A stretch of 58,861 bases of DNA from an uncultured Clostridia bacterium. GTDB lineage: Bacteria > Bacillota > Clostridia > TANB77 > CAG-508. The notes under the pieces are model-generated. The model had not been told where the DNA came from. It did not search any database and was given only the letters and a program-made list of their open reading frames with translations. Position 1 is the first letter of the stretch, and each line of letters begins with the position of its first letter. Location: contig CAKOVG010000003.1 in the NCBI GenBank assembly GCA_934121875.1, forward strand, positions 1 to 58,861, read 5' to 3'. The position numbers and the translations under genes were made by a program. Below are positions 2,911 through 31,815 of this stretch, in pieces.

Positions 2911-2946
2911 AAAAGCAAACCGTCATATTTGACGGTTTGTTTTTTA
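2911..2946. terminator. bidirectional intrinsic terminator
   Basis: A 9-bp stem, CAAACCGTC (2916-2924) paired with GACGGTTTG (2931-2939), is flanked by an A-run on the left and a T-run on the right. It serves the minus-strand cohesin gene (stop at 2955) and the plus-strand 2571-2903 unit. Confidence 0.75.
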
Positions 2947-2954: not shown

Positions 2955-3728
2955 TTATTTAATATCATGTATATTTCTATATTTAATAAGAAATACAACT
3001 GCTACAACTGCAAGTGTTGCTATTGCTACAGGTATAAATGTATATATACCTGTTTGTGGTAGTTTGCCTCCTGGCGTAGTATTATCTGTACTTGGCTTAT
3101 TTATATTGCCATTGTTGTTAGTATTAATACTAATATTGTTGTTTTTTACTTCTTCCACATTATTTTCTGGTTTTTCAGTATTATTAATATTATCTTGTTT
3201 ATTATCATCTTTTTTGTTGTCTTCTTCACTTGGTTTATTTGAAATTTTTTCTACTAGCTTTAATTTAGTAGATACATCACTTACTGCAATTTCGTTTTCA
3301 GTATCTGCTACGTCAAAATTAGTTATAGAAACAGTAGTTTCTTTATTTTCAGGAATAGAAATTACTTTAAAATTGACTTTAATAATATTTCCATTTGGTT
3401 TCATAACATCTGATCTTTCTGTAACAAATTCTTGGTTGTCTGCATTATAAACTGGTACAGACCATGAATTTGTTGCTTCACAAGATACATATTGTAATAC
3501 AGCTTTATCATAGTTTATTTTTGCGTGTACTGTAGCTACTCCTTCTACATTAGTTGCAGATTGTAACGCTAGTGTATAAGAAACAGTATCGTTTAAATTA
3601 GCTGTTTCTTTTGAGCATGTTAGTTTCATAGTAGCTCCATAATCCACAGCTTTACTAATATTAACTGTAGATAATAATATTATAAGCAATAAAAAAACTA
3701 TTTTTAAAATTTTATATATTTTTTTCAA
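2955..3728 (-). CDS. cell-wall-anchored (LPQTG) cohesin-domain protein, putative anchoring scaffold for the upstream dockerin-bearing adhesin
   Basis: A TTG start has an AGGAGG RBS 7 nt upstream. The signal peptide is MKKIYKILKIVFLLLIILLSTVNISKA. A roughly 130-aa beta-rich module carries a cohesin-like pattern (NDTVSYTLALQSATNVEGVATVHAKINYDKAVLQYV ... IIKVNFKVISIPENKETTVSITNF). An N/D/K/E-rich linker follows, then LPQTG, a hydrophobic stretch and the basic tail KYRNIHDIK. Confidence 0.8.
   Translation of the reverse strand: MKKIYKILKIVFLLLIILLSTVNISKAVDYGATMKLTCSKETANLNDTVSYTLALQSATNVEGVATVHAKINYDKAVLQYVSCEATNSWSVPVYNADNQEFVTERSDVMKPNGNIIKVNFKVISIPENKETTVSITNFDVADTENEIAVSDVSTKLKLVEKISNKPSEEDNKKDDNKQDNINNTEKPENNVEEVKNNNISINTNNNGNINKPSTDNTTPGGKLPQTGIYTFIPVAIATLAVVAVVFLIKYRNIHDIK
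3048..3062 (-). other. LPQTG sortase recognition motif within the cohesin protein
   Basis: CTA CCA CAA ACA GGT encodes L P Q T G. It is followed by a 21-residue hydrophobic segment and a basic tail, the classical tripartite sorting signal. Confidence 0.8.
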
Positions 3729-3784
3729 ATTTTATCCTCCTTTCTCTTTTGTTTATAATATTTTATATTTAATTTTTATAAATT

Positions 3785-3818
3785 GCAAGAGATATTATAA
3801 AATATCTCTTGCTTTTTT
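3785..3818. terminator. perfect 12-bp hairpin between the giant adhesin gene and the cohesin gene (weak or partial terminator or processing site on the minus strand)
   Basis: GCAAGAGATATT (3785-3796) pairs perfectly with AATATCTCTTGC (3801-3812). The T-run lies on the plus-strand side. In the gene direction only AATTTAT follows, so read-through into the cohesin gene is plausible. Confidence 0.45.
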
Positions 3819-3828
3819 GATTTTATTT

Positions 3829-6800
3829 TTATAATGTAATTTTTCCAACAATTGCTTGTTTTTCTTTAGAAATATCTAATGCTTTAATTACGCCATCATC
3901 ATTTATGTCACCTGCTAATAAGTAAGCTCCTTCTAATTTTTTCTTTCCTACTAGATGTTGTTTCATTAGAGAAATGTCAAGCGCTTTGATTAATCCATTT
4001 CCAGTTACATCTCCTATAACTGATAATGTTTTAGTAATACTTTCTGTACCTTTAGTTGCTACTATTTTCATTCCTGTTCCAACATAATTGTTATCTGCTA
4101 CTATATTTCCCTTATTGTCATATACTTTCATTTCTCCATTTGATTTCATATTAGCTAAATAATCTTTTACTGTTCTTGGTCCTGAAATTCTTTCGACATA
4201 TTTTTCGGTTACTCTATATATATCTGACTTCAAATATAATTCATCATCTGAACTTTCTAGTGGTTGATGTAATAAATTTATGGTCAATTCATTGTCTGAA
4301 GCGTTTACAATTTGAATATTTTGTCCTTGAGTTATTTCTACATTGTATAATGCTCTGCTATTATATATTTCTGTAACATGAGCTATTATTTTTTGTACTA
4401 ATGCTACTGTTTCATAACCATTTGGCTCTTGTGTTTCTTCTATATTAATTTCGAATTTAGCCAAGTCTGGTATTTGAAGACCTTGTAAAATTATTTTTCC
4501 TGTTTCATTTGATGTTATTTGTTTTGTTTCTCCATTTAGGGTTATATTTAATTTTACATTTTTGTCAGCAATTAATTTATTTGTTATTTTGTCTACTAAA
4601 TTAATTTGCATTGTGTATTGGTTAACTGCTGATTCACTTTGTACATATATAATTACAGTTCTGTTTGCTTCATCATATTTTGTTATTACATTTTCTGATT
4701 CTTTTATAGTAATATTTCCAGTTATTTGATTTCTATTCATTTTTACAAACATTTTATTATTGTTAATTTGGTAACCAAGTCCTACTTTAGTATTTTGTAA
4801 ATCTATTTTAATATCTCCTGCTCCATTTACTTTTAATGCTATTTCTCCGTTTTCGTTTGTTGTTTTTGTAGTTTCTAGTGATGTTGCTCCAACGGTTTGA
4901 TTAACTTTAATACTAAATTCTGAATCTTTAATAACTGCCTGATTATTGTTTTTGTTTACATTTATTACTTTAATAGTATATGGTAACACATTTAATTCTT
5001 TTTGTTTATTAGCAAATGAATATTTTACGTAGTTATTATTTTTATCCATAAGTTCTAATCCGTTTGTTTCAGATGCTTTTGTAATTTTTCCTTCTGAATC
5101 ATAATATAATGATATTTCTCTTGGGTTATTATCTAATTGATATCCTCCGCTTGCTAATATTTCAGTTAATTTATATTTTTTTGTTTCATTAAATGATTTT
5201 GGTAAAGCAAAATATGCAATTCCTTTGTTATCTGTAGTTGATGTATATTCGTTTCCTGAGCTTATATCTATTAATTTAAATTTAGTATTTACTATATTTA
5301 AATCATAATCGTTTTCATCAACTTTGTTAATAGCTAATCCTATTAAGTCTGTTCTATTAGGAACTTTTATGTTAATTGATTTATTGGCATTGTCAATATT
5401 TAATAAGTCTTCTTCTACATTTGCATAAACTTTTTGCAATACATCATTTTCTTTTTTTATTCCATATTTGTAATATCCATCAGTTTTACCTAATTCATAT
5501 CCAGCTGGAGGTACAATTTCTCTTATTTCAATAACAATGTTTCCACTACCAACTAAACCTTTTAAATTAATTTCACCATTTTCGTCTGTTGTAGCTGCTT
5601 GATATACTGGTATTCCAACATCTGGTGTTACTTTGACTTGGAATGGTACTCCTGCTATTCTTATATTAGAATCATTTTCATTTGTTTTTACAACTTTTAT
5701 TTCATAAGGTTTTGCATATTCTTCTAATTTATTAGTGATTTTTGCTTTAATATTAGTTTTGTTATAAGTGATATTTGCATTATTTTTTCCACTAATAAGT
5801 TTTGTACTTATAATTTCACCATTCTCATCAATTTCTGCTTCTATGGTAATTGGTGCTATTTGTTGATAGTATTCATTTTTTTCTTCTGTTAATATAATAA
5901 AAATAGATTTTGCATAATATTTGTTTTCAATTGCAGTTTGTATTGTTCCTGCTTGTGTTGTCGTAATTGTACCATAATCTATGATATTGCTTAAATTATT
6001 CTTTTCTTGCACTTTCATGTTAAATGATATTCCTGATAAACTGTTATTGTTTTCATCTACTTTGTCAATTTCAAGTTTTATAATTGGTTTATTACTTACT
6101 GTTATTGCAATTTCTCTTGTTTTATCATTCACTTGAATAGTTGCACTTTGAGAATTACATTTTTCATTACGAACAATTAGCTTAACATCATTTATATCTG
6201 TTTTATCTAATTTAACATCGAATTCAATATTGATTGGTATATTAATTAAACCTTCATGTCCTTCTGGTGCTTTTATTTCAGTTAATGTTAATTTTACCTT
6301 TCCTTCATATTGTAATTTTTTAATTTCAGCTACACCTTCTTCTACTACTTTTTCATTAACAAGTTTTGGTCCAGTTTGTAAAGCTTCGTATGTTTCCACA
6401 TTAGTTCCATTTACATTTAAGTTAACATTAAATATTGAACCATTAACTCTTTGAGAAGATGTTTCTGCCTGCTTAATTATTTTTATTTTGTAATTATCAA
6501 TATTTCCAAATGCTATAATAACATTCATAGTTAAACTATTACTATTGCTTACATTTTCAATTCTTGATGTTTCTCCATTTATTTTACTAATTAACCCATT
6601 TCCATCAAATTCTACTACAATGTATTGATCTTTTATTGCATTATATTTTCCATCTATATTATCTGGTGTAGTAGGTGTTGAAATTGTATACACTACCTTT
6701 TTATTAAATAATTTATATGTATTTCCTAAGTCAAATGATGTAATGGCATTTGAACTATTCTCAGGACCTTTTTGTAATAAAATATTATCATTTTTTGTTA

Positions 6801-9800
6801 GTATTGATGTTACTGTTTCATTAAGTTCACCATATTGTGCTTTTACCATATGGCTTCCGTTTTCTACTGTTTTACCAGTTTCACCATCAATATCTGCAAT
6901 ATTTAATAATAAGTTATTTTCATTTTTTAAATAAATTGTTACAATTCCTGTTTCGTTGTCAATAGTATAGTTTAAATTATCTGTACTAGATAAATATGTT
7001 AATTTATATTCTTTACTGCTCTTATTAATTTTAATATATCCAGAGTTTTGATTATTTACTTTATAGTTTTCTGGTATACTATTTTGACTAAAATAAAATG
7101 TTAAGTCACCATTTGCATTTATATTTTCAATTATTGCCTGTCCTTTTGCATTGGTTTTTATTGTATCTGCTTTAATTGTACCATCTATATTTTCAACTGA
7201 AAGTGAAAATTCTGAGTTTGCAATTGGTTTTTCTGTCCATACATCTTGATTTACTACCCTAAATGTTACTCTATTATCATTTGTTATTTTTAATTTCAAA
7301 TGTACACTTTCTTTAGAATCAGACATTGTACATAATTTGTCAGTAGCTAATTCTATTGTTGCATTTTCTGGTTGTTGTTCTATAGTATATGATGTAATTC
7401 TGCCTTCTGAATTATAACAAACTTTAATAATTGCATCTTCCATTTTTCTATATCCAGTTGGTGCTTGAAGTTCTGAAATTGTATATTCTATAGTTTTATT
7501 TTTTGGAATATCTCCAAGATATTTAGTTGTTTCTCCTTTAGTATTTGTCATAGCTCTCCAATTATTAGTATTATTTTCTTCTTTTGCAGTAATTATGTAT
7601 TCAACTCCGCTTAGTTTATTTCCATAAACATCAATTTTTTCTATTCCTACTCCTAATTGGCTTTCTCCTTTTATCTCTATTTGAACACCTTTTAATCTTG
7701 AAGATTTATATAGCTCTTCACTATATCCTTGTGTAATTTTTTCATTTTGTGGATTAATAATATATGTTCCTTTTTCTTTTACTGTTCCTAGATTTCCATA
7801 TGAAACTACTAATCTAATTGGTTTTATGGCTTTATATCCACCATAACTATTAGTTTGAGTAATTGTATAATTTACAATTCTATTTTCATAAGTTGGTGGA
7901 ACTGAAATTTTTAAAATTCCATTTTCATTTGTTTTACTATCAACTGTAGTTTCTATTCCAGTTAATTCATTTTTAATTTTGAATCCTAAACCATATACTC
8001 CACTATTATAATTTTTATCTATTACTTTTATAGCAATTTCTAATGTAGATTTACTATATAATTGTAGCATAATATTTGGTTCTGTTTGACTATTATTCTG
8101 TTGTGTTTTCTTAACAACTAATCTGTCTTTATTTAAAGGATTTACACTATTAATAGTTCCATCTAAACTATATTTTACTTCAAATTTTTGATCTTCAACT
8201 ATTTCATATCCTCTTTGTATTGATACTGGATGAATTACATATGTAATTTTTTCACCTGGATAAACTTTACCTAAATTTGTTATAGTATTTGTTAGTCCTG
8301 TTGATGATGATATTGTTGTTTTTTCTCCTTTATTTGAAGTTATTTCGTATTTACCTGTAATATTTACAGTGTGATTATGATAATCAGATGTTATAATAGA
8401 CATTGTAGTTATTTTCTTGGTACCAATTTCAAGTACTATACTTCTCGTTCCTATTCCACTTGCTACTACATATTCTGATTGATTTGTTGCAATTCTAGAA
8501 ATTCTTCCTAAATTATCATATGTTACATTAACAATAATATTTGGTAATTTCTCTATATTGGTATCTGTGTTTACATTTTGTTCAGATATATTATATGTTA
8601 TGGTATTTTCAGCTTTAATTTTTCCTGCATTGATGTTTAGTTTTCCTTGTGCATTTGTTGTTGTTTTTATAGTTTTTTCTAGTGCTGGTGAACTAATTGT
8701 TAATTCTCTTCCTGTAAGAGGTGTTTTTGTGCTAGTATTTGTTCTTTCAATTTGCATTTCTAAATTTGGTATATATTTTACATTTACTTCTACCGCTAAG
8801 CCACTTCCATATTTTACATCTATATATTCGCTATTTGATACACAATTTGTAATGTTTCCATTGCTTCCAAAGTATACTCTTATAGAGTGTTTACCTTTTT
8901 GAATTGCAGTGTTATATCCTGATTGTGTTGTTAATACAGTAACTTCATAATCTAAATAGCTATTTGCAATAGTAGAACCTAATATAGTATTTGCTTGCCC
9001 TTTTGAATCAGTTTTTACTGTAACACTTTGTTTGCTATAATTAACTTCTTTTAAGTATATTTGCATATTAGCTAACTTAATATTTCCGTCAAATGCATCT
9101 TGTGTAGAAATATAAAATTCAAATTTTTGCTTATTTTTTATTTCTATATTTAATTGATATGAGTCATATGTAATTGATTTAATTACTGTTCTGTCTGCAG
9201 TACTTGCAGAAACTATTTGATATGCATTTGTTATTTTTCCATCATTATTATATGTTACTCTAATAACAATATTTTTATTTAATGTATATCCTCTAGCAAC
9301 TTCTGTTTGTTTTAACACATAGTCTACATTTATACTTTTTGGTACAGACTCCAATATTGAGCTTGCCTCTCCATCTTTTGTTACTAAATTAATTTTTCCG
9401 TTAATACCACTTCCTGTTAACTCATATGTTGAATCAACTGTTAATGTGTCATCTCCATCAGATACATTTTTAATATTAAACTTTGTAACTGGATTGTTTT
9501 TAACTGTTATTTTGACAGTATAGGCTCCTGTTTGTTCAATAACATAAGCTTCACCATGTGTTGCATAATTTTTATTTGAAAATGGAGAAATTGATTTTAT
9601 TTTTCCGTTTTCGTCAAAGTTAATATCTAGTCTAATATTAGCAATAGCCATATAACTTCCTTCTATTTGAGATTGAGATATAATAAGTGTTTGTTTTGAA
9701 TTAATTGCTAATATTTTTCCAAAGTTAAGCATTCCTAGTCCAGTATCCTTATCTGTTGTAGTATCTTTGTATACACCTGTAGTTAATTGTCCGTGGAAAT

Positions 9801-12800
9801 TTGATTTTATTTTTTCAGTATTATCTAAAATATTTTGATTTTCAATAATTACTTTAAATTCATCTATTTCTTCATATTTAATTTGAATATCAATATCAAA
9901 TGAATTTGGTTTGTCTGTTCCTTGTTTTATTGAAATATATTCAAATCCTGATAATAGTACTGAATTTTGAGTAATTATTTTTCCTTCTCCATCACATCCA
10001 ATTTGAAGTGTTCCAATTACCTTGTTCATTGATTTATATTTGTATCCTAATGGTGCTTGTAATTCAATGATTTCATATACAGTTGTTTGTCCAGCAATTG
10101 TTTCTCCTACACTTGCATGTGCTAATTCTTCTGTTTTTGTTATAACTGTTCCTGCATTTGTAGTTTTATTTACTTGTCTTATTTGGTATTTTCCACCTGC
10201 TAATGGTTTATTAGTTTCTTTATCTACTGACTCTACACCTATAGTTAAAAGTGGTTTACTCTTAATTGTTATTATAATTTCTGTTTGATTATAATATTCT
10301 GAATTTTTATTTGGAATTTCTATTGTTAAATAATTTTGTGCACTAGTTGGAATTTCGCTTGCAATAATTTTTCCTTTTTCATTATATGTTAATGTAAATT
10401 CAGTATTTTGTATTTCCTTAAATCCAAAACCAGGCTTTGGATTTGTTATTTGATATGTAATCTTTTTAGAAATATAATATGGTCCTACATAAAGTTGTGC
10501 TCTACCATCAAGTGAAGTAACTTTTGTATCTCCATATACTTCTTCTTTTCCTTTTTGTATAATTTTAAAATTACTTCCTGCAATTGCACTTGTTGTATCT
10601 TCTTGATTTATATTATACACTTGCATTCTAGCTTTTACTCTATTTTTAGTAATTAGTTTTAATGTTGTAGTTCCAATTGAAGCTGTGTCATCAATTTGTA
10701 CATATCCATCACTTGCAATAATTCTTGCATCTGTAATTAAACCTTTATTATCATAAGTAACTGATATTTGAATATCTGAAGTATTAATCATATATTTTTC
10801 TTCAATCGCTGATTGTTTTAAAGTATATGTTATTGTTTGATTTTTGTATTTCTGACAAGAACCAACGTCTGCTTGTCCATTTCCATCTGATATCATTAAT
10901 GGATATCTACTATTTTTATCATTATTTACTGTTATATCATAAAGTGCTGATTGAATTATTTTTGTTTTGTCAGCATCATCTTGTAAATCTATATTAATTT
11001 GAGTTCTTTTACTTGGAATTACATACATTTTAATTTCCATATTAATATTTGTATCTGTGTCTTTTACGGTTGTAATTAAATCAAATACTCCTTCTTTGCT
11101 ATTAGGTGTGCAAGATGTAATTTTTCCATTTTCATCAAATACAACTGTTAAATCTATTTCTTTTGTAGGTTCATAATCAATTGCATTCGTCACTTGTTCA
11201 ATATGATAATTAATAGATTCTCCTTTGTATACTTCTCCAACTAATTCTATAACATCTCCAATATTATTGGTTTTTGTTGTTACATTTGAGTGTTCTCCTT
11301 TACTATTGGTAATGTCAAAAGTATACCCTGCTAAGCTATAATCTACTTCTTTATTAACACTTTCAACTCTTACTTTCATACGGAAATCTTCAACTCTAAT
11401 ATAGGTATTAATATAGTTTTGATTTTGTGAGAAATTTGTTCTTGTAATATAGTGACCTGTTGTAACTTGATTTTTTACATTTCCATATTCATCAAAGACT
11501 ATTTCTACTTTTCCTCTTTCTGTATATGTATTTCCTGTTTGTTCTGAAATTGTATATAAAACAGTTTGATTTCTATGTTCTGTTTTAAATCCAACTTCAG
11601 TACTATTCATATACATTTCTTTTGAAAGTCTTTCTTCTTCTATAACTTGATATGTTCCATCTTCATTTTTTACTTGTGAAACTGCTTTAAATATGTTTTT
11701 ATTATAAGTTTTGTATCCTTGTAATTCACTCTTATTAATTTTAATTTTAAAATATGGTTCTAATTCATTAATAATATTTAATTTTAATAGAGTATCCCCT
11801 ATTGGATCACCTTCTATTGATACTGTTGATATTGCTCCCTTGTTTGGCACATAAATATTTTGTTCAGTTAAAATTTGAGGTTTACTGATTATTTTTCCAT
11901 CTTTGTCATAAATAACTCTAATTAAAATATCTTTATTTGCTATATATGATTTTGAACTTTCAACTTCTTCAATTTTGTATATCATTGTTCTTAATGCATG
12001 TGCATTTTCAAAATAAATTTTACTTAATCCATTTTTATCTGTAGCTTGTGAATAACGAATTTCATTAATTGCTAAATTATTAACTGCATATTCTTCTTCA
12101 TCCCATACTGTAATTTTATATTTTGTACCACCTAATTTTATGGTATTATTTTCAGAATCTGTATTTGTAATTTGTAAAATAGGCTTTGCTTCTACTTGTT
12201 TATTCTTCATTTTAATATCAATAGAAGATATTTCTGTTGTTCCTTTTTCTACATTGTTTTTGCCTGTAATTACTGTATTACCTTCTTCATAATCTGAAAT
12301 TATCTGGCAATCTGTTACTGTTCCACTTGTACTAAATAATATTCTTATTTTTATTAATTCAATTGCTCTATAATTGTCTGGCACATAATATTCTTTTAAT
12401 ACAATATCTATTGTTTTTCCATAATATTTATATGATCCTGTTTCAGGTAATGATACTTTTAATTTTGTATTTCCATTTTCATCTGTTTTTTGAGAACCAT
12501 ATGCAAATACTTTATTTCCATTCCCTGTTGTGATGTTTGAGATATAATATGCTTCTGTTTGAATTCTTACATCTTTTAAAGGTTTGCCATTTTCATCTAC
12601 TTTTTTTACATTAATAGCAAAATTATAAATAATACTATTATATATTGTATATTCAACTCTATTATTACTTGAACCTACATATTCAACATTATCAGATATT
12701 GTTACTTGTTCTAATTTTTTTACATTTGCATCATCATCAAATGTTACGTCAAATTGTGTTGTTATTTTAGCTTCATTTTTATATGTTAAGTTTTCTCTTC

Positions 12801-15800
12801 TTCCATTTGAAATTTGTGCTAATTCAATTCTTAATGTTCTATTAGCATATGTATTATCTAATCTAGCTTTTCCTACTCCATTTGTAATTGTAGCTGTTTG
12901 ATATCCAAGTGGAATATATTCTTCTCCTCTTTTTTCACTTACAATAATACTTGCTTCTCCATTTAAATCGTAATTTGAATCAATATCTTTTAAATTAACT
13001 GTAATTTCTAGTGGATTTGATAATGCTTTATTCAATAATCCTATATTAATTGTATCTGTTCCCAAACTATTATATTTTTTAATTTCACCTATAGAATACT
13101 CAGTACTACCATTTCTTTCTACATAGCTTAAATATTTAATATTATCTACTATTCCTTGTGCACTAATTCCTCCTATTGCAAATTCTTCTGTATCATTTCC
13201 TTGTGTAATTTCTGCTGATTTCATTTTGCCATTTGCATCAAATTTTGCAATAAATTTGATATCTGTTGTATCTCTTTTATAATTATATGAAGGAACATTT
13301 TGTATTACAGTTATTTCAACTGTTTTATTTTTGTAGTTTTTATATAGATATATTGAATCTGTTCCATTTGTGTCATTAATATTAGTATTTCCTCTTGAAT
13401 TAGATGTTTCATAAATTTCCTTTGATATTACTCCATCTTCAACTAACCTAGTTTCTAAGGTAATTTCACTTCCAGTAATAAATTTAAATCCATGGCTTTG
13501 TGAATCTGAATTATCTTTGAAAATTCTTTCTAATTTTTGTGCATTTTCTAGTTGATAATAATGTGTTTCCCATCTATACCAATGCCAATACCAATATGAT
13601 GACCATCGATATGAATAACTTCTTGTCCAATTTCCATAAGATTTATTAAATATTTTTACAGCAACTGTTGCATTTTTGGGTCTTTCTTCTGCTGGTTTTT
13701 CTTTATCAGTGTCATTTGGAATGTCTGGAACGTTTGGAACATCTGGTTGTTCTGTTTCAGATGCTACTTTTGTAGGTACTGTTATTGTTACTACCTTTTT
13801 AGTTACCCCATCTACTGTTTTATTTATTATTTCAACTTTCAATTCTTTTGTAGTAGTATCTTGTAAGTATACAAGATTTCCATTTTCATCTATTTTTAAT
13901 GTAACTACTTTTATTTCTTCATCTAGTCCATAACCAACTGCTGCTTTAACTTCTTTTAATAGTATAGTAGTTTTATCTTGTCTAATTGCTAAATCACTAA
14001 CTTCTATTTCATCATTAACAAGTGTATTTGCACTTATTATACTGCTTTCTGCATATGGCCTAATTTCAACATCATATCTTGAACCTGGTATTTTTTCACC
14101 TTTTGAATTTACTTTTATTATGTCTATATCATAAAGGATTCCAGATAATATATCCTCTGTTGAATTCATTATTTTTAATGAAATATTTACTTGGTTTTTC
14201 TCTGCTTCATAGCTTACTAAACGATCTGATAAAAGTTCTTTTCCTTGTAAATAACTTATTCCTTTATATGTAACTATTTCCCCTTCTTTGGTAAAACGAA
14301 CTTCTACATTTATTGTTTCTCCTAATAATTTATATGGTTCTACTGTTTGTAATTCTTCTAATTTAAATATATAGCTTTTTCCTTCTTTTGCTACAAATTC
14401 TTCTCCAATTTCAACATATCCATTTGATGAAGTAGTAATTTCTTGGCTATAACCTGTTGTTTCTTCTGTTACTCTAAATTTAAACCCTCCAAGAGATAAC
14501 TTTTTGTTTGTATCTGTTTTTGCAACTTGAAATTTAACTCTACTATTTTTATTTGAATATACATTATCTTCTACTAATACATTACCATTTTCATCTATTT
14601 TAATTTGAGATGCATTAATATTATTGGTAGAATTTACCTGGTAAATTCCTTTATTGTTTTTAGTTAATAATATTGTTTTTGTTTTATCATCTATTAAGTA
14701 TCCATTTGCTGCCTTTGTTTGTGTTATTTGTATAGTAATATTTTTGTCATTTAATAATTCTGTATTTGCTTGTCCATTATCACCTGTTGATATAATTTTG
14801 GTTATAATTGAATTAGATGTTGACATTTTTATTTTGTATTGTGCACCTATAACAGCACTTTCAGAGTCTTTATCTTTTTGTGTAATTATTAATTTAGTGT
14901 CTCCGTTTATTGGATTCATTGTACCTTTTATTTGTATATTTGATACATATTTGAACATATCTGTATCATCATCTTCTGAATAAAATACATTAATATTTTC
15001 TAATTTTGACATTTGATATGTATCTACAATTTTATTATTTTCATATTTGATAACTATTATAGGTGTAATTCCTAATACATCATTTTCTATTTCTAATCTA
15101 TATATTACTTCTCCATTTCCATCATTTTGTATATTTATTAATTCTATATTTCCATTTTCATCTGTTACACCAGTTCCTATTAAACTGTTATCCAAAATTT
15201 TATAAATTTTAACACCAATTCCTTCTAATGCAACATCAGGATTTTGTTCTGAACTTATTTTTATTTTTATAGCATTTGTGCTTGTTTTTTTAACATTTGT
15301 TAATTTAACATATACAACACCATTTTCTGCTTTTTCAAATACACCACTCATAGATGCTTTATTATATTCAATACTTCCGTCATCTTTTCTATTAATAGTT
15401 ATATAACGATCTACAGTTTCTTTAGCATATCCGTTTGCTGATTCTTCATGAATAAATGTTAATTTTAATAATCCTTTTCCATATAGATTATCAATTATAA
15501 TGTTTCCATCAGCATTTGTTTCATATGTTTTGGTTGTATATTCTAGTCCATCTTCTGTTTCTACTTTAATTTTATATTTACTATCTTTAACTGGTGATCC
15601 ATCCTTGTAATCAGTTACAGAAATTTGAGTTGTAAATTTACTTGTTTCTTTTCTTTGGTTTGCAACTATTATATTTGCTTTTGTTTGGTTTTCAATTGTA
15701 ACTGCTTTATTTTCTGCAAATAGTTTTTGCTCTACTTTAGAAACCTCTCCATTTTGATCAAATGTTATTTTTAAATATGTTTTTCCACAACTTGTGTATT

Positions 15801-18726
15801 GTTCATTTACACTTACTTGTTCTAAAACATATTCTTTTGTTTTATTTACTCCTGCACTTTGAATATTAAATACTATTTTACCGTCTTTAGTAGTTCCCTC
15901 TGCTATTTGAGTTCCATTTTGTTTTAATACAAATACTGTACCAGATAATAAATTTTTAGTTTGTGCATCAATGTTTGTAATTTCAAAATTAAAAGCTGTT
16001 TTTTCAACAAAAACTTTTATTTGTATTGTTTGTCCATCTTCACTAACTTTTGCTTGCACTTTATCTGAGCTTTCAGAAGCATTAATTATTATCTTTGAAC
16101 CATTTGCATCTATTTTTACTGTTTGATAATCTGCTAGTTGATATCCTACTGCTTTTTCTACGTTTTCTATTTTTATACTGCTAACATCTTTTAATTTTGC
16201 TTTTTCTACAAATATTTTTCCATTTTTATCTGTTTGTACATTTTTGGCAATTTCTATAAGTATTCCATTTTCTTTTTCTCCAATAATATCATAGGTAGCA
16301 CCTGTTACTCCCATACCTGTTTCACTATCAGCTACTTGTAATTCAATTTTGTATGGATTAATGTAATATGGGCCTGTTACTTTTTCTTTAGAAACTGTTC
16401 CATCTTGATTTGTTGCTTTTATGTGTAAATATAGTACTTGATCTGTATAATCTCTAGAAAGTTTAACAGTTTGTTCTGTTGATTTTCCAGAAATGGCTAT
16501 TTCATCAGACCATTTGTCTATTGCAACTTCATCAGTGCTTTCTGTAAAAGCATATTTATATGCTTTTAAACCACTTTCATCATCCTTTATGTTTACCAAA
16601 ATATCAATTTCTTGATTTTGTGTTTCTGCTTCTATAGGATTTACAGTAATTAAGGGAGCTGTTTGATCCTTTATAATTTGAATACTTTGTGAAAATTCCT
16701 CAGAAGAAATTTTTATACCATTTATTATTTTTGAAACTACTAGACTCATTGTATAATTTCCAAGTCCATATGAACTATTAGCCTTTATTGAAAAATCTAA
16801 TAATGGTTGATTTCCACTATATACTTTTTTATTTTCTTTTTTTACAGTCCATTCATATGTTAATTCTGCTCCTGATGGATCATAAGATTCATCTATTACT
16901 TCCAATTTTTCATACATAGATATATTTTTATTTTTTACTTTATATGATGCTATTGGTTTTACTGTAGAGGCTCCTGTTGTTACATATTTTATTGCACTTG
17001 TTTCAACATCTTGGTAATCTGTTACAGTTAACCTAACCATATATCTAGTATTTGCTTCTAGTTCTTGTACTATTTCTGTTCTTATACTGTTAGAATTAAT
17101 TTTTTTCCAACTACTATCTGTAAGTTTTTTGTATTCCCATTTTTCTGTTTTTATTCCATTGGTTGCTTTTTGTTTTTCTGTGTTTTCTGTATTTGCCTCT
17201 ATATCTAAGTCATAAGAGTTGCTAGTTAATGCAACTTGATTTCCTACTACTTTCATATTAAAGGTAGCTACAGGTCTTCTATGAGCATATACTTGTGTTA
17301 TTAATTTGTCTTCACAATAAATATAATATTTTCCTACATTATCAAAACCTTTTATTAATTCATTAGTATATACTCCGTTTAATTCATATTGGTATTGTGG
17401 GTTTTCATAGTATTTTTCATCATGAATTACTTTCCAAACACCATTTGGATAAGCATCTGTTGGTGTTTCTACTCCTGTAGATGGAGATGTCACCTGAATA
17501 TTTACTGGTTCTCCTGCAATAACGGTGTTTCCAACTACTGGTTTTATAATTTTTTTAATATATTCTACTGTTTCTTTAATAGCATTTTCTGAAGAATTAC
17601 CTACATATATTCCTTTGTTATCATTTTTCTTAATAACATCTTCCATTTGTGCACGATTTTCTTCTGTTCCATATCCAATATAGTAAACGTCATTATTCAT
17701 TAGTTTTGCAATAATAGCTGTCAATTCTTCAGTATTAGAAAATTGTGAATTTGTTTTGTCTTCTGCATTAATTACTACGTGTAATGCACCATCTCTCCAT
17801 TCTGGTGCTTGTAAAACTTCTGTAAATTTCTTTACAGTTTGTGTTTTTAAATTAATGTTAGTTAGTGTAAAACTACCTATTGAATCACATCCATGACTAT
17901 AATGATCTGAGAAAAATCCATATCCCTCACCATAACTTTCGTCTGGTTTATATTCATATATATATTCTGATGATAATCCTCCACCATTAATTTTTATTGC
18001 TTTGTCTGTTACTTTTACAGTTAAATTTCCTGTTGGATTAATATTTAGTGATTTAATAAGTCGTATATCTGTACCTACTTTAAATGCAGTTCTATTATCA
18101 TTATCATATTTAAAATACCATAATGCTCCATTTGCATTAGATGATCCACTGTAAAAAGTTGCACTTGATTTATTAAAGCTTAACATATATCCTTCGAGTG
18201 TATTATTTGAATTTTTTTTCACTCTTAAAAGCATTCCAGCAGCATTAAAACTATCTCCAAAGTTTATATTGTATCCAAAATTAAAATCTTGTTCTTGATT
18301 TCCTCCTGGAATAATCCATATAGCATTTTTACCTGCTAGGGAGCTGTTACCTACCATGCTTACATTTTTTCCATTGTTCGTGAAAGATACTGAACCTATT
18401 GATGAATTTACACTTTCAACCCATTCAAAAGCTTCTTGTGTTACAACAGTTTGTGTATCAATAGCTGATATTTTTATTTTTCCACTATCAATCTCAGTTT
18501 GTGACATTACTTTTTGTGCAATTAATTCTTCTTTTAATTTCTTCTCAAATTCAGTAAAATTTGCACTTGTCTGTGATTTAGTTAAAACAACATCAACATT
18601 TGGTGTTTGACTTATTTCAAGTTTTACTTGTTGAGAAGCATATGAATAAATGCCTACACCCAATACTGCTGTAAGTAATATGCCACTAATTATTTTAATT
18701 AATCTTTTGTTTTTTAAGTCTTTCAT
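3829..18726 (-). CDS. giant (4,965 aa) secreted repeat adhesin: N-terminal lectin/PKD-like head, many SpaA/Cna-B-like ~100-aa modules, C-terminal dockerin
   Basis: This is a single uninterrupted 14.9-kb ORF with an AGGGGGA RBS. The signal-peptide-like N-terminus is KRLIKIISGILLTAVLGVGIYSYA. A PKD-like signature is present (ESYDPSGAELTYEWTV). More than 25 modules end in a (F/Y)D-x-NG-x-I signature. Repeated A-P-x-GY-type motifs (ELQAPTGYRK, IELQAPLGYKY, REIVPPAGYEL, ETQEPNGYET) are typical of Cna-B/SpaA prealbumin-fold domains. No LPXTG is present. Confidence 0.9.
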   Translation of the reverse strand: MKDLKNKRLIKIISGILLTAVLGVGIYSYASQQVKLEISQTPNVDVVLTKSQTSANFTEFEKKLKEELIAQKVMSQTEIDSGKIKISAIDTQTVVTQEAFEWVESVNSSIGSVSFTNNGKNVSMVGNSSLAGKNAIWIIPGGNQEQDFNFGYNINFGDSFNAAGMLLRVKKNSNNTLEGYMLSFNKSSATFYSGSSNANGALWYFKYDNDNRTAFKVGTDIRLIKSLNINPTGNLTVKVTDKAIKINGGGLSSEYIYEYKPDESYGEGYGFFSDHYSHGCDSIGSFTLTNINLKTQTVKKFTEVLQAPEWRDGALHVVINAEDKTNSQFSNTEELTAIIAKLMNNDVYYIGYGTEENRAQMEDVIKKNDNKGIYVGNSSENAIKETVEYIKKIIKPVVGNTVIAGEPVNIQVTSPSTGVETPTDAYPNGVWKVIHDEKYYENPQYQYELNGVYTNELIKGFDNVGKYYIYCEDKLITQVYAHRRPVATFNMKVVGNQVALTSNSYDLDIEANTENTEKQKATNGIKTEKWEYKKLTDSSWKKINSNSIRTEIVQELEANTRYMVRLTVTDYQDVETSAIKYVTTGASTVKPIASYKVKNKNISMYEKLEVIDESYDPSGAELTYEWTVKKENKKVYSGNQPLLDFSIKANSSYGLGNYTMSLVVSKIINGIKISSEEFSQSIQIIKDQTAPLITVNPIEAETQNQEIDILVNIKDDESGLKAYKYAFTESTDEVAIDKWSDEIAISGKSTEQTVKLSRDYTDQVLYLHIKATNQDGTVSKEKVTGPYYINPYKIELQVADSETGMGVTGATYDIIGEKENGILIEIAKNVQTDKNGKIFVEKAKLKDVSSIKIENVEKAVGYQLADYQTVKIDANGSKIIINASESSDKVQAKVSEDGQTIQIKVFVEKTAFNFEITNIDAQTKNLLSGTVFVLKQNGTQIAEGTTKDGKIVFNIQSAGVNKTKEYVLEQVSVNEQYTSCGKTYLKITFDQNGEVSKVEQKLFAENKAVTIENQTKANIIVANQRKETSKFTTQISVTDYKDGSPVKDSKYKIKVETEDGLEYTTKTYETNADGNIIIDNLYGKGLLKLTFIHEESANGYAKETVDRYITINRKDDGSIEYNKASMSGVFEKAENGVVYVKLTNVKKTSTNAIKIKISSEQNPDVALEGIGVKIYKILDNSLIGTGVTDENGNIELINIQNDGNGEVIYRLEIENDVLGITPIIVIKYENNKIVDTYQMSKLENINVFYSEDDDTDMFKYVSNIQIKGTMNPINGDTKLIITQKDKDSESAVIGAQYKIKMSTSNSIITKIISTGDNGQANTELLNDKNITIQITQTKAANGYLIDDKTKTILLTKNNKGIYQVNSTNNINASQIKIDENGNVLVEDNVYSNKNSRVKFQVAKTDTNKKLSLGGFKFRVTEETTGYSQEITTSSNGYVEIGEEFVAKEGKSYIFKLEELQTVEPYKLLGETINVEVRFTKEGEIVTYKGISYLQGKELLSDRLVSYEAEKNQVNISLKIMNSTEDILSGILYDIDIIKVNSKGEKIPGSRYDVEIRPYAESSIISANTLVNDEIEVSDLAIRQDKTTILLKEVKAAVGYGLDEEIKVVTLKIDENGNLVYLQDTTTKELKVEIINKTVDGVTKKVVTITVPTKVASETEQPDVPNVPDIPNDTDKEKPAEERPKNATVAVKIFNKSYGNWTRSYSYRWSSYWYWHWYRWETHYYQLENAQKLERIFKDNSDSQSHGFKFITGSEITLETRLVEDGVISKEIYETSNSRGNTNINDTNGTDSIYLYKNYKNKTVEITVIQNVPSYNYKRDTTDIKFIAKFDANGKMKSAEITQGNDTEEFAIGGISAQGIVDNIKYLSYVERNGSTEYSIGEIKKYNSLGTDTINIGLLNKALSNPLEITVNLKDIDSNYDLNGEASIIVSEKRGEEYIPLGYQTATITNGVGKARLDNTYANRTLRIELAQISNGRRENLTYKNEAKITTQFDVTFDDDANVKKLEQVTISDNVEYVGSSNNRVEYTIYNSIIYNFAINVKKVDENGKPLKDVRIQTEAYYISNITTGNGNKVFAYGSQKTDENGNTKLKVSLPETGSYKYYGKTIDIVLKEYYVPDNYRAIELIKIRILFSTSGTVTDCQIISDYEEGNTVITGKNNVEKGTTEISSIDIKMKNKQVEAKPILQITNTDSENNTIKLGGTKYKITVWDEEEYAVNNLAINEIRYSQATDKNGLSKIYFENAHALRTMIYKIEEVESSKSYIANKDILIRVIYDKDGKIISKPQILTEQNIYVPNKGAISTVSIEGDPIGDTLLKLNIINELEPYFKIKINKSELQGYKTYNKNIFKAVSQVKNEDGTYQVIEEERLSKEMYMNSTEVGFKTEHRNQTVLYTISEQTGNTYTERGKVEIVFDEYGNVKNQVTTGHYITRTNFSQNQNYINTYIRVEDFRMKVRVESVNKEVDYSLAGYTFDITNSKGEHSNVTTKTNNIGDVIELVGEVYKGESINYHIEQVTNAIDYEPTKEIDLTVVFDENGKITSCTPNSKEGVFDLITTVKDTDTNINMEIKMYVIPSKRTQINIDLQDDADKTKIIQSALYDITVNNDKNSRYPLMISDGNGQADVGSCQKYKNQTITYTLKQSAIEEKYMINTSDIQISVTYDNKGLITDARIIASDGYVQIDDTASIGTTTLKLITKNRVKARMQVYNINQEDTTSAIAGSNFKIIQKGKEEVYGDTKVTSLDGRAQLYVGPYYISKKITYQITNPKPGFGFKEIQNTEFTLTYNEKGKIIASEIPTSAQNYLTIEIPNKNSEYYNQTEIIITIKSKPLLTIGVESVDKETNKPLAGGKYQIRQVNKTTNAGTVITKTEELAHASVGETIAGQTTVYEIIELQAPLGYKYKSMNKVIGTLQIGCDGEGKIITQNSVLLSGFEYISIKQGTDKPNSFDIDIQIKYEEIDEFKVIIENQNILDNTEKIKSNFHGQLTTGVYKDTTTDKDTGLGMLNFGKILAINSKQTLIISQSQIEGSYMAIANIRLDINFDENGKIKSISPFSNKNYATHGEAYVIEQTGAYTVKITVKNNPVTKFNIKNVSDGDDTLTVDSTYELTGSGINGKINLVTKDGEASSILESVPKSINVDYVLKQTEVARGYTLNKNIVIRVTYNNDGKITNAYQIVSASTADRTVIKSITYDSYQLNIEIKNKQKFEFYISTQDAFDGNIKLANMQIYLKEVNYSKQSVTVKTDSKGQANTILGSTIANSYLDYEVTVLTTQSGYNTAIQKGKHSIRVYFGSNGNITNCVSNSEYIDVKYGSGLAVEVNVKYIPNLEMQIERTNTSTKTPLTGRELTISSPALEKTIKTTTNAQGKLNINAGKIKAENTITYNISEQNVNTDTNIEKLPNIIVNVTYDNLGRISRIATNQSEYVVASGIGTRSIVLEIGTKKITTMSIITSDYHNHTVNITGKYEITSNKGEKTTISSSTGLTNTITNLGKVYPGEKITYVIHPVSIQRGYEIVEDQKFEVKYSLDGTINSVNPLNKDRLVVKKTQQNNSQTEPNIMLQLYSKSTLEIAIKVIDKNYNSGVYGLGFKIKNELTGIETTVDSKTNENGILKISVPPTYENRIVNYTITQTNSYGGYKAIKPIRLVVSYGNLGTVKEKGTYIINPQNEKITQGYSEELYKSSRLKGVQIEIKGESQLGVGIEKIDVYGNKLSGVEYIITAKEENNTNNWRAMTNTKGETTKYLGDIPKNKTIEYTISELQAPTGYRKMEDAIIKVCYNSEGRITSYTIEQQPENATIELATDKLCTMSDSKESVHLKLKITNDNRVTFRVVNQDVWTEKPIANSEFSLSVENIDGTIKADTIKTNAKGQAIIENINANGDLTFYFSQNSIPENYKVNNQNSGYIKINKSSKEYKLTYLSSTDNLNYTIDNETGIVTIYLKNENNLLLNIADIDGETGKTVENGSHMVKAQYGELNETVTSILTKNDNILLQKGPENSSNAITSFDLGNTYKLFNKKVVYTISTPTTPDNIDGKYNAIKDQYIVVEFDGNGLISKINGETSRIENVSNSNSLTMNVIIAFGNIDNYKIKIIKQAETSSQRVNGSIFNVNLNVNGTNVETYEALQTGPKLVNEKVVEEGVAEIKKLQYEGKVKLTLTEIKAPEGHEGLINIPINIEFDVKLDKTDINDVKLIVRNEKCNSQSATIQVNDKTREIAITVSNKPIIKLEIDKVDENNNSLSGISFNMKVQEKNNLSNIIDYGTITTTQAGTIQTAIENKYYAKSIFIILTEEKNEYYQQIAPITIEAEIDENGEIISTKLISGKNNANITYNKTNIKAKITNKLEEYAKPYEIKVVKTNENDSNIRIAGVPFQVKVTPDVGIPVYQAATTDENGEINLKGLVGSGNIVIEIREIVPPAGYELGKTDGYYKYGIKKENDVLQKVYANVEEDLLNIDNANKSINIKVPNRTDLIGLAINKVDENDYDLNIVNTKFKLIDISSGNEYTSTTDNKGIAYFALPKSFNETKKYKLTEILASGGYQLDNNPREISLYYDSEGKITKASETNGLELMDKNNNYVKYSFANKQKELNVLPYTIKVINVNKNNNQAVIKDSEFSIKVNQTVGATSLETTKTTNENGEIALKVNGAGDIKIDLQNTKVGLGYQINNNKMFVKMNRNQITGNITIKESENVITKYDEANRTVIIYVQSESAVNQYTMQINLVDKITNKLIADKNVKLNITLNGETKQITSNETGKIILQGLQIPDLAKFEINIEETQEPNGYETVALVQKIIAHVTEIYNSRALYNVEITQGQNIQIVNASDNELTINLLHQPLESSDDELYLKSDIYRVTEKYVERISGPRTVKDYLANMKSNGEMKVYDNKGNIVADNNYVGTGMKIVATKGTESITKTLSVIGDVTGNGLIKALDISLMKQHLVGKKKLEGAYLLAGDINDDGVIKALDISKEKQAIVGKITL
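3832..4020 (-). other. C-terminal dockerin-like module (two duplicated Ca-loop segments)
   Basis: The last 63 aa are VIGDVTGNGLIKALDISLMKQHLVGKKKLEGAYLLAGDINDDGVIKALDISKEKQAIVGKITL. They contain two 23-aa repeats, each with the D-x-(T/N)-x-(N/D)-G-x-I-x-x-x-D spacing of type-I dockerin EF-hand-like loops. Confidence 0.7.
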
Positions 18727-18822
18727 CTTTTTCTTCCCCCTAAAAAATAAATACCTCTTGTTTTTATATTAACATATAGTATTTAACAATTCAAATGTAG
18801 TTTCTTCCATATTTACCATGTA

Positions 18823-18866
18823 TTATAAAAAGAGCCTTAAATTCCTTTACGGAAATTAACGCTCTT
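18823..18866 (-). terminator. probable intrinsic terminator after rpoC
   Basis: On the minus strand, AGAGCGTTAATTTCC - GTAAA - GGAATTTAAGGCTCT forms a 15-bp stem with 2 mismatches, followed by TTTTATAAT. It sits between the rpoC stop and the adhesin gene. Confidence 0.55.
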
Positions 18867-18952
18867 TGTTTCATATTTCTATTTTTTATAATTTCGTGAC
18901 ATTTTTGTAACAAATTGTCATATTTTTTTGGTTTTTCTTACGCATAGTAGCA

Positions 18953-18968
18953 TTTTGTCGTTTTTAGT
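18953..18968 (+). promoter_or_regulatory. copy A of the recurring motif TTTGTCGTTTTTAGT (0A-box-like core TTTGTCG)
   Basis: This is an exact match to the copies at 37781-37796 and 40298-40312. It lies 14 nt past the rpoC stop and about 228 nt upstream of the giant adhesin start. Confidence 0.5.
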
Positions 18969-18981
18969 TTTCTACTTTCTA

Positions 18982-21900: not shown

Positions 21901-22515
21901 TGCCTTTTTTTGTTCACTTGCTTTTTCAAGTTCTTTTTTTAGTTTTTCTGCTAATTTTTCTACATCTATTTTTGATAAAAGTTCTTCAAGTGCTTCTGCT
22001 CCCATCTTAGCCTCAAAAGATCCTCTACCATATTTTTCTTCTGCTTCACGATATTCTTTTTCAGATAATACTTGCCCAATTGTTAAATCTGTTGTTCCCT
22101 TATCTGTTACAATATATGATGCAAAATATATTACTTTTTCTAAGCTTCTTGGAGATACATCAAGCATTAATCCAATTCTACTTGGAATTCCTTTAAAATA
22201 CCAAATATGTGCAACTGGTGCAGCAAGTTCAATATGTCCCATTCTTTCACGTCTAACTTTTGATTTTGTTACTTCAACACCACATCTATCGCATACAATG
22301 CCTTTGTATCTTACTCTTTTATATTTTCCACAATGACATTCCCAGTCTTTTGTTGGTCCAAATATTTTTTCACAAAATAGACCGTCTTTTTCTGGCTTAA
22401 GTGTTCTGTAGTTAATAGTTTCTGGCTTTTTTACTTCACCTTTTGACCATTCTCTAATTTTCTCATCTGATGCTATTCCAATTTTAAGTTTGTTAAAAAT
22501 TTCTAATTCATCCAC
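18982..22515 (-). CDS. rpoC: DNA-directed RNA polymerase subunit beta'
   Basis: Beta' motifs are unmistakable: the zinc finger [23 protein letters not shown], the catalytic NADFDGDQM, and the trigger-loop/bridge regions. I place the start at the GTG at 22515, which has an AGGGGG RBS 9 nt upstream and gives [23 protein letters not shown], the usual N-terminal length. The ORF track extends it to an ATG at 22551, which has a poor RBS. Confidence 0.95.
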
Positions 22516-29693: not shown

Positions 29694-29727
29694 GCAAAAC
29701 CAGCACTTTAATTGTTGCTGGTTTTGT
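29694..29727 (-). terminator. probable terminator overlapping the AI-2E transporter stop codon
   Basis: AAAACCAGCA (29696-29705) pairs with TGCTGGTTTT (29716-29725). The U-rich end lies in the gene direction. Confidence 0.5.
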
Positions 29728-30820: not shown

Positions 30821-30829
30821 TTTAACCTC

Positions 30830-31591: not shown

Positions 31592-31614
31592 AGTTATTCT
31601 CTCCTTGTGCAAAT

Positions 31615-31643
31615 AATATATCATAAAACTTTTACTAATTCAA
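31615..31643 (-). promoter_or_regulatory. sigma-A promoter for xth (TTGAAT-17 nt-TGaTATATT)
   Basis: On the minus strand, TTGAAT (31638-31643) is followed by a 17-nt spacer and an extended -10 TG-A-TATATT (31615-31623). The -35 lies 2 nt from the palindrome below. Confidence 0.55.
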
Positions 31644-31645
31644 GA

Positions 31646-31773
31646 GGGTGACTTCGGGTGACTTTGGGGACGGGGTCAAAAAGCACCTTTTTTCAAATTT
31701 AGCTCTTTTTTAAAATATAATTTTTACTTTGGGTGCTTTTTGACCCCGTCCCCAAAGTCACCCGAAATCACCC
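31646..31773. repeat. GC-rich 128-bp near-perfect palindrome (42-bp arms, 44-bp spacer)
   Basis: The left arm is GGGTGACTTCGGGTGACTTTGGGGACGGGGTCAAAAAGCACC (31646-31687). The right arm (31732-31773) is its reverse complement with a single mismatch. Each arm contains a tandem GGGTGACTT / TCACCCGAA direct repeat. Its composition is strikingly unlike the surrounding AT-rich DNA. Confidence 0.85.
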
Positions 31774-31782
31774 GAAAGTAAT

Positions 31783-31811: not shown

Positions 31812-31815
31812 TATA

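Follow-up and report, generated by a model that had tools for sequence, protein, structure and literature searches.

A candidate cohesin-dockerin tether for a giant SpaA-repeat surface protein of an uncultured Clostridia bacterium

Cohesin-dockerin pairs have been studied mostly as the glue of polysaccharide-degrading enzyme complexes. The closest described precedent for the pair reported here comes from Ruminococcus flavefaciens, in which the non-enzymatic, cellulose-binding protein CttA carries an X module joined to a dockerin (X-Doc) and binds the single cohesin of the sortase-anchored protein ScaE (PMC2930009). The cttA and scaE genes are adjacent (PMC3672088 Table 1; PMC2930009), the complex of the CttA X-Doc with ScaE withstands ~600 pN, its dockerin being stabilised by the X module (PMC4266597, PMC7456326), and dockerins of the CttA group have three sequence inserts that contact the X module (PMC4266597). 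More widely, "nonSLH-anchoring" and "single-cohesin" scaffoldins, as well as non-cellulolytic microbes that contain scaffoldins, are recognised classes (PMC11557425). Here, we describe two neighbouring genes in a 58,861-nucleotide (nt) stretch of DNA from an uncultured Clostridia bacterium (contig CAKOVG010000003.1 of assembly GCA_934121875.1; hereafter the window), one of which encodes a giant surface protein of 4,965 amino acids (aa) ending in an X-Doc, and the other a 257-aa anchor protein with a single cohesin and an LPQTG sorting signal. We consider it probable that the pair is a two-gene surface-display module, with the giant docked non-covalently on the wall-anchored cohesin. This tether, first proposed in an initial annotation of the window, is well supported in silico. 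The description of the pair as the least conventional feature of the window was overstated, given the precedent of adjacent genes for an X-dockerin protein and a sortase-anchored cohesin in CttA/ScaE (PMC2930009, PMC3672088, PMC4266597). What is new is a tether of the CttA/ScaE kind that would serve a giant adhesin with SpaA repeats where no cellulosome is visible, together with a new type of X-Doc that is widespread on adhesin-like proteins.

With CttA/ScaE of R. flavefaciens and R. champanellensis the locus shares the architecture of a non-enzymatic X-Doc cargo and an adjacent gene for a monovalent, sortase-anchored cohesin. The force path from the N-terminus of the X-Doc to the C-terminus of the cohesin, demonstrated for CttA/ScaE only (PMC4266597, PMC7456326), would be alike as well. 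However, CttA is ~740 aa long by gene coordinates (PMC3672088 Table 1), has two cellulose-binding modules and is encoded within a cellulosome gene cluster, and ScaE also anchors the ScaB scaffoldin, whereas the cargo here is a 4,965-aa SpaA fibre with an unrelated head and no cellulosomal genes nearby. Sca2 of R. bromii is also a sortase-signal protein of a human-gut Firmicute, and its one cohesin binds dockerin proteins that include non-amylases (PMC4611034); unlike the present anchor it is 534 aa long, its known cargo consists of amylases and peptidases, and it involves neither a giant fibrillar adhesin nor a conserved two-gene module. In Cellulosilyticum lentocellum one cohesin gene and one dockerin gene stand side by side and their products ClcC and ClcD form a heterodimer, but that complex was assayed for cellulase activity, which rose ~2-fold when the complex formed (PMC13487519), whereas nothing enzymatic was detected in the present pair. 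Sortase-anchored SpaA/Cna-B fibrillar adhesins have the same N-terminal head, long SpaA/prealbumin-like stalk and C-terminal anchor; the difference here is that a non-covalent dockerin takes the place of the covalent LPXTG and the sorting signal is found on a separate 257-aa protein. The "dockerin-type giant proteins" of Omnitrophota (bioRxiv 10.1101/2023.11.21.568195) were considered as relatives and rejected, because their many internal dockerin/thrombospondin-like repeats and transmembrane anchors represent another architecture. Searches of the literature for dockerins together with fibrillar adhesins, SpaA or Cna, although incomplete in coverage, found no description of such a module.

The X-dockerin tail and the cohesin of the anchor protein

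The giant ends, as the initial annotation had it, in two duplicated 23-aa segments with dockerin character. These begin at residues 4905 and 4939 and are identical at 14 of 23 residues, and the Pfam family Dockerin_1 (PF00404) matches residues 4905-4953 with a score of 36.7 bits against a gathering cut-off of 22.9. When compared with the PDB by phmmer, the dockerin matched the double dockerin 8x39 of C. thermocellum (5.5e-11) and, at ~1e-4, the DocCel5 and ScaB dockerins of A. cellulolyticus. An AlphaFold2 (AF2) model of the last 136 residues of the giant (4830-4965), made with 19 relatives, shows the X-Doc as a single rigid unit (predicted local distance difference test, pLDDT, 97.2; predicted template modelling score, pTM, 0.89) with the three-helix fold of a dockerin (helices at model residues 86-96, 104-110 and 120-130). 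In a Foldseek search the dockerin half aligned with 2ccl_B, 4uyp_B and 4fl4_J at template modelling (TM) scores of 0.77-0.90 and root-mean-square deviations (rmsd) of 1.0-1.6 Å, of which 2ccl_B was the best (TM 0.90, rmsd 1.0 Å). The matched structures are compact cellulosomal dockerins, mostly labelled type I. The same Foldseek comparison returned no PDB fold match for the X half, and the matches of the X-Doc model included neither of two known X-Doc complexes, that of CttA (4IU3) and the type II complex 2B59. In contrast to the CttA dockerin with its three inserts, the dockerin here is compact and type-I-like, the X module appears to be of a different fold, and no homology of the X-Doc to the group 4a/type III X-Docs of R. 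flavefaciens was detected. Given that 4IU3 and 2B59 were not matched, that the dockerin half is compact and that the X half is without a match, the likeness to CttA/ScaE is one of analogy and not of membership. The near-identical helices of the two dockerin repeats would permit a dual binding mode, judging from their sequence.

The 257-aa protein was likewise found to have the parts first ascribed to it: a signal peptide, one cohesin, a low-complexity stalk, and LPQTG at residue 223, with a hydrophobic helix (residues 228-255) and the basic tail KYRNIHDIK behind it. This is the full set of features of an LPXTG surface protein, and the NCBIfam model EF0750_LPXTG gave a weak match (18.7 bits, under its cut-off of 47). 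Pfam Cohesin (PF00963) matches residues 35-151 at 35.5 bits, where the cut-off is 24.1, and covers positions 2-130 of the 139 in the profile. In an AF2 model built on 20 family members, pLDDT exceeds 95 for residues 30-160, which make up the cohesin, and falls below 50 for residues 168-231 in the stalk, while the C-terminus is helical. Foldseek placed more than 40 cohesin structures at the top of its matches (E ~1e-8, TM up to 0.86), indicating a cohesin beta-sandwich. Highest among these rank 2jh2, 2vo8 and 2w1n (TM 0.80-0.86), non-cellulosomal cohesins from GH84C/NagJ and GH33/NanJ of C. perfringens, a low-GC, non-cellulolytic Clostridium, and they are followed by ScaB cohesin 5 of R. flavefaciens (5n5p, TM 0.72), C. 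thermocellum OlpC and a scaffoldin cohesin of C. cellulolyticum. This, too, sets the pair apart from CttA/ScaE, 5n5p being the sole type III cohesin listed. In C. perfringens, cohesin-dockerin modules link secreted glycoside hydrolase toxins to one another, and not an adhesin to a sortase-anchored stub. The initial annotation had made its proposal depend in part on Pfam dockerin and cohesin matches and on the two corresponding folds, and on all of these points the outcome agreed with it. As for the enzyme that would process the anchor, LPQTGS is the motif preferred by SrtD of C. perfringens, a class D sortase (PMC4498605), and a class D sortase is therefore at least as likely as one of class A.

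Conservation of the pair and architecture of the giant protein

Relatives of the anchor protein fall into 19 homologous clusters with 44-70% identity and lengths of 211-282 aa, all annotated with PF00963. Throughout the family (n = 20) the proteins consist of a signal peptide, the cohesin and an N/D-rich stalk of variable length and sequence, with no other domain, and 19 of the 20 close with [LI]P[QK][TA]G, a transmembrane helix and a basic tail. The exception, P0009, diverges past the cohesin and is missing the whole tail. The genomes of two relatives are metagenome-assembled genomes of uncultured Clostridia, one of which is from a Hadza human-gut dataset according to its isolate name. The close family is represented by six distinct loci on nine contigs (L001, L002/L005, L003/L004, L007/L008, L009/L010 and L011), and in all six a SpaA and Dockerin_1 gene encoding 3,230-4,981 aa is located immediately upstream of the cohesin gene, ending 110-280 nt before it. 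The genes downstream of these pairs vary, and include GdpP, CoatF, a Y-family (IMS) polymerase and a short-chain dehydrogenase (adh_short). Identity between the loci is 72-93% for the X-Doc, the best conserved part of the giant, compared with 57-78% for the stalk, and is 59-83% for the cohesin module. Within the cohesin, conservation is highest in the strands at residues 64-72, 100-109 and 130-149 (strands 3, 5 and 7/8) and lowest in the strand at 152-159 and in the stalk. The dockerin-binding face of solved cohesins is made of strands 8-3-6-5, which the conserved strands would presumably fit if our assumed mapping of strands to this face is right. Scores above curated cut-offs in the hidden Markov model searches, confident folds, and a pair that recurs on unrelated contigs together exclude chance.

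The pair also occurs in two more distant lineages. In L014/L015, a gene for a 4,319-aa SpaA and dockerin protein is followed after 72 nt by one whose 269-aa product has a signal peptide, a cohesin and a stalk and ends in an IPKTG anchor. In the gene calls of L014 the head (3287-6028, 913 aa, P0259) and the stalk with dockerin (6001-18960, 4,319 aa, P0076) belong to separate genes with an overlap of 28 nt, which could be due to a frameshift, an assembly error or a true split. L013 (1808-20019) presents a three-gene version. Its 5,300-aa SpaA and dockerin giant is followed first by a 465-aa protein, in which a signal peptide and an N-terminal cohesin-like module are combined with Flg_new repeats and an X-Doc of its own, and then by a 230-aa protein in which a cohesin stands between a signal peptide and an LPKTG anchor. 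The 465-aa protein looks like an adaptor-like scaffoldin in a hierarchical module. The dockerin helix residues differ between lineages, reading IKALDIS here, ISTADIA in L014 and LNTADIL/INQKDIL in L013, and the cohesins diverge alongside them, a pattern that would be expected of cognate pairs.

Outside these loci the X-Doc is widespread. An exhaustive HMMER search with it yielded 4,352 representative clusters at E <=1e-3 and 352 at <=1e-10, and many of the matches span all 136 residues and are C-terminal, in proteins of 130-5,300 aa. A word-indexed protein search with the X-Doc found one 106-aa fragment only, whereas the exhaustive search added giants of 93% and 78% identity, and giant proteins seem to be poorly represented in the former. 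Ten X-Doc relatives that were scanned combine the dockerin with BspA-type leucine-rich repeat (LRR), Cna_B, SpaA, DUF285, Flg_new, SLH or BNR domains. None of the ten has the catalytic domain of a glycoside hydrolase.

The giant itself has the order of a classical Gram-positive fibrillar adhesin, namely a head, a stalk and a C-terminal anchor, with the X-Doc filling the anchor position. Its open reading frame (ORF) is taken to be intact since homologues of near-equal length (4,962-4,981 aa) exist. By eye, the signal peptide has a basic n-region, a hydrophobic core and an AXA-like cleavage site. The head consists of a jelly-roll-like N-terminal domain, an alpha/beta region, two PKD domains and an Ig-like domain. 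The PKD domains, at ~567-657, were the sole recognisable head domains in a family-profile search; the first ~500 residues of the head matched nothing in Pfam or, by phmmer, in the PDB, and the head as a whole had no NCBIfam match. The N-terminal domain is marked by the motifs GDSFNAAGMLLRV and GFFSDHYSHGC (GFGFFSDHYSHxC in the family form), and its pattern GFFSDHYSH...IGxFxLxNI may resemble that of ConA-like/DUF1080 jelly rolls. Behind the head follows a long tandem array of SpaA domains, as is characteristic of SpaA fibrillar adhesins: Pfam SpaA (PF17802) matches 15 stretches of the giant (E = 1.9e-54), and an iterative HMM built from the giant itself counts 30 stalk repeats.

The initial annotation had stated that the giant is without an LPXTG, SLH or choline-binding anchor. 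This holds for the C-terminus, where no LPXTG is present, and for SLH and choline-binding domains, for which there was no Pfam match; as regards LPXTG motifs in general it needs to be qualified, given that there is one internal LPETG at residue 2093 (window ~12445-12459). We rejected this motif as a sorting signal and regard it as a chance occurrence, because it is located mid-protein inside a SpaA repeat and no transmembrane helix follows it.

Homologues of the head provide an independent view of the anchor position. Residues 33-800 are homologous over their full length, at ~40% identity, to more than 80 clusters of proteins of ~1,000-1,300 aa, among them a hypothetical protein of Marasmitruncus massiliensis. 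We sorted the C-termini of 91 head homologues (P0192-P0282) by eye, and in this manual count ~17 end in a sorting signal (LPYTG, LLYTG, LAYTG, IPQTG or IPKTG with a transmembrane helix and basic tail), a few have a transmembrane helix only, and the majority are without a recognisable anchor; a C-terminal dockerin was present in none of the 91. Because head homologues carry direct sortase signals, the dockerin occupies the usual position of the LPXTG motif, which supports the X-Doc as an anchoring device. The comparison also supports, at the level of sequence, the idea that one type of head may be mounted in two ways, through a sortase signal that gives covalent attachment or, as in the giants, through an X-Doc. 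In two of the homologues, P0216 and P0234, an X-module-like segment precedes a stalk and LPYTG, and a dockerin is lacking.

Layout and surroundings of the locus

The DNA of the window is low in GC (26-33% G+C) and nearly all genes are on the minus strand. Coordinates of the pair and of the features within it are given in Table 1.

Table 1. Features of the giant and anchor genes (window coordinates unless a related locus is named)
Feature	Position	Strand	Remarks
Giant surface protein gene, 4,965 aa	3829..18726	-	Signal peptide, head, ~30 SpaA repeats, X module, dockerin
N-terminal signal peptide, residues 1 to ~32 (...SYA/SQQ)	18631..18726	-	Read off the sequence, without a predictor
Non-repeat head, residues ~33-800	16327..18630	-	Presumed ligand-binding end
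Stalk of ~30 tandem SpaA/prealbumin-type domains, residues 811-4786	4369..16296	-	Period ~125 aa
X module, residues ~4830-4903	4018..4239	-	Small beta domain packed on the dockerin
Type-I dockerin, residues 4905-4965	3832..4014	-	Two Ca-loop/helix repeats, identical IKALDIS segment
Palindrome/hairpin GCAAGAGATAT-loop-ATATCTCTTGC	3785..3812	.	12-bp stem, between giant and cohesin genes
Palindrome in relatives	L001 9907-9932; L003/L004 9906-9931; L009/L010 9905-9930; L011 9912-9937		
Ribosome-binding site AAAGGAGG of the cohesin gene	3736..3743	-	7 nt before the TTG start at 3726-3728
Anchor protein gene, 257 aa	2955..3728	-	Signal peptide, cohesin, stalk, LPQTG sorting signal
Cohesin module, residues 28-160	3249..3647	-	PF00963, AF2, Foldseek
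Low-complexity N/D/K-rich stalk, residues 161-221	3066..3248	-	Predicted disordered
Sorting signal LPQTG (residues 223-227), transmembrane helix and basic tail	2958..3062	-	
Terminator-like hairpin past the cohesin gene	2916..2939	-	

The anchor gene is situated downstream of the giant on the same strand, and the gap of about 100 nt noted at the outset is exactly 100 nt, with the hairpin inside it. The cohesin gene starts with TTG in the window and homologues have ATG at that position. The core of the intergenic palindrome (CAAGAGA...TCTCTTG) occurs a single time in the window, with 0 occurrences expected, and the exact core is also found in four other close-family loci (6 contigs), ~65-95 nt 5' of the cohesin start. 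The distance from the palindrome to the stop codon of the giant varies among the loci from ~40 to ~185 nt, and compensatory changes in the stem are seen in L007 and L011. No U-run follows the palindrome on the coding strand in the window and none is consistent across loci. Reading the hairpin as a simple intrinsic terminator at the end of the giant gene is therefore not supported, as it is without a U-run and holds its position with respect to the cohesin start and not to the giant stop. It could be an operator, an element of the 5' untranslated region or a weak terminator.

Upstream, the giant is flanked by rpoB and rpoC, and downstream of the cohesin gene lies a gene for a GdpP-type c-di-AMP phosphodiesterase. 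The giant starts 255 nt downstream of rpoC (18727-18981), and no minus-strand terminator-like site was detected in this interval. In many Firmicutes rpoC precedes ribosomal protein genes, and against this gene order the giant and cohesin genes look like a module inserted after rpoC. The module of L013 has a G5/3D gene (415-1356) on one side and Exo_endo_phos and AI-2E transporter genes (20258-22166) on the other. Similarly annotated G5/3D, Exo_endo_phos and AI-2E genes adjoin each other in the window (29708-32817), where the module stands between rpoC and gdpP; it therefore seems that related genomes carry the module at different places in the chromosome.

Outside the pair the window has 26 ORFs of 150 aa or longer, and domain scans covered 21 of these and two shorter ones; the three unscanned ORFs of the window all lie antisense inside scanned genes. 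Elsewhere in the window are a two-component system, an AI-2E transporter, SpoIIE, mreBCD, a penicillin-binding protein and two more large surface proteins. Consistent with the initial annotation, which had seen no glycoside hydrolase or other cellulosomal gene, there was no glycoside hydrolase, carbohydrate-binding module, multi-cohesin protein or further cohesin or dockerin among the scanned ORFs, and a six-frame search of the window for dockerin-loop motifs recovered nothing beyond those of the giant itself. The multi-cohesin scaffoldin, dockerin-bearing glycoside hydrolases and carbohydrate-binding module that define a cellulosome or amylosome were accordingly not found within the window.

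The two other large surface proteins are encoded at 40473-45605 and 45624-50699, both on the minus strand, and are 1,710 and 1,691 aa long, with signal peptides and matches to SdrD_B, DUF11 and CarboxypepD_reg. Their C-termini consist of a transmembrane helix and a KKK tail without LPXTG (...ILPPFGDTYLYYGIGIAVVV... and ...DIILTVATGRIVLNIG...). A similar ending, D-M-I-I-G-I-V-T-G followed by a transmembrane helix and KKYIL, is seen in P0275 and P0276, which have the jelly-roll-like N-terminal domain of the giant. Such an ending may be a non-canonical sorting signal.

The proposed tether and its alternatives

From the domain identities, folds, architecture, synteny and conservation described above, we infer the following arrangement. 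The 257-aa protein would be secreted, cut by sortase at LPQTG and joined covalently to peptidoglycan, and a single cohesin would thereby be held out from the wall by a short disordered stalk. The giant would be exported by means of its N-terminal signal peptide, without an anchor of its own, and its C-terminal X-Doc would grip the cohesin in a Ca-dependent manner, with the X module stiffening the dockerin. Tethered by its C-terminus, the resulting fibre of ~30 SpaA/Ig-like domains, estimated to be on the order of 100 nm or more in length, would present the N-terminal head at its far tip, where the head may bind a ligand, possibly a glycan.

Several observations weigh against this tether. In sequence, the cohesin lies far from those with solved structures: a phmmer search of the PDB with the 257-aa protein returned nothing meaningful, and the family profile gave only weak cohesin matches (E = 0.011-0.02). 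Its identity was settled by comparison of folds. While Ca loop 2 of the dockerin (DINDDGVIKALD), as read off the sequence, is canonical, Ca loop 1 (DVTGNGLIKALD) has Thr at position 3, which is usually Asp or Asn. No sortase gene was found among the scanned ORFs of the 58.9-kb window. In addition, a hairpin and promoter-like hexamers stand between the giant and cohesin genes, and the two may therefore not be co-transcribed. Finally, the genome may encode further cohesins or X-Doc proteins, and adaptors exist, as in L013, so that the pairing need not be exclusive.

This last point leads to a first alternative, in which cohesin and dockerin are genuine but do not form an exclusive pair. The LPQTG cohesin would then be a general wall socket, like ScaE or R. 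bromii Sca2, that receives several X-Doc proteins of the genome, or the giant would prefer another cohesin or an adaptor encoded elsewhere. X-Doc tails are indeed found on many different adhesin-like proteins, the L013 adaptor with its own cohesin and X-Doc is encoded between giant and anchor, and R. bromii Sca2 binds the dockerins of several types of protein (PMC4611034). However, the adjacency of giant and anchor is strict in every locus across three diverged lineages, dockerin and cohesin diverge together, and no further dockerin or cohesin was found in the window; on balance, we regard a shared socket as unlikely. It is also conceivable that the two proteins do not interact at all, the giant being released or otherwise held, its dockerin-like tail forming an end that is stabilised by Ca or binds a ligand, and the cohesin-like protein acting independently. 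Many modules that resemble cohesins or dockerins and occur outside cellulosomes have no known partner, and "single-cohesin" proteins are a recognised class (PMC11557425). Nevertheless, such independence would leave unexplained why the genes are adjacent at different genomic sites, why conservation within the giant is highest in the X-Doc, why the anchor has a cohesin as its only domain, and why head homologues have sortase signals at the same position, and we consider it very improbable.

A different geometry arises if the N-terminal signal of the giant remains uncleaved, so that the protein is held at both ends as a loop, or if the giant docks on the cohesins of neighbouring cells and bridges aggregates. 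The N-terminal hydrophobic segment could serve as a signal anchor, and the analyses do not fix which cell's cohesin receives the giant. Against this stands the AXA-like cleavage site (SYA/SQ), and the conserved N-terminal head is shared with sortase-anchored proteins in which the head is distal, which argues for a free distal head here too; we give looping or bridging even less credence than a lack of interaction. All of these alternatives fit the synteny and conservation less well than does the tether of the giant on the neighbouring anchor.

More speculatively, the pair may be one case of a widespread and undescribed plug-and-socket display in gut Clostridia, a possibility that we hold tentatively and on balance doubt. 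Non-enzymatic adhesins of various kinds (SpaA giants, LRR, Cna_B, DUF285 and Flg_new proteins) bearing the new, rigid X-Doc tail would be mounted, directly or through an adaptor, on sortase-anchored monovalent cohesins. Such a display would be exchangeable or releasable and force-resistant, with fibres of at least 100 nm, and would represent a non-covalent alternative to LPXTG anchoring and not the remnant of a cellulosome.

In uncultured human-gut Clostridia, then, the glue of the cellulosome appears to act as a wall anchor for a fibrillar adhesin of ~5,000 residues. With conserved modules of two and of three genes, a broad X-Doc family and consequences for mechanics, the system is a worthwhile and directly testable lead. 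If the binding is true, the CttA/ScaE principle would extend from adhesion to cellulose to general surface display, and a new compact X-Doc:cohesin pair, possibly with high-force or catch-bond behaviour, would become available for mechanobiology and for the engineering of protein display. It would also offer a testable account of how giant surface proteins that lack an anchor stay on the cells of gut Firmicutes.

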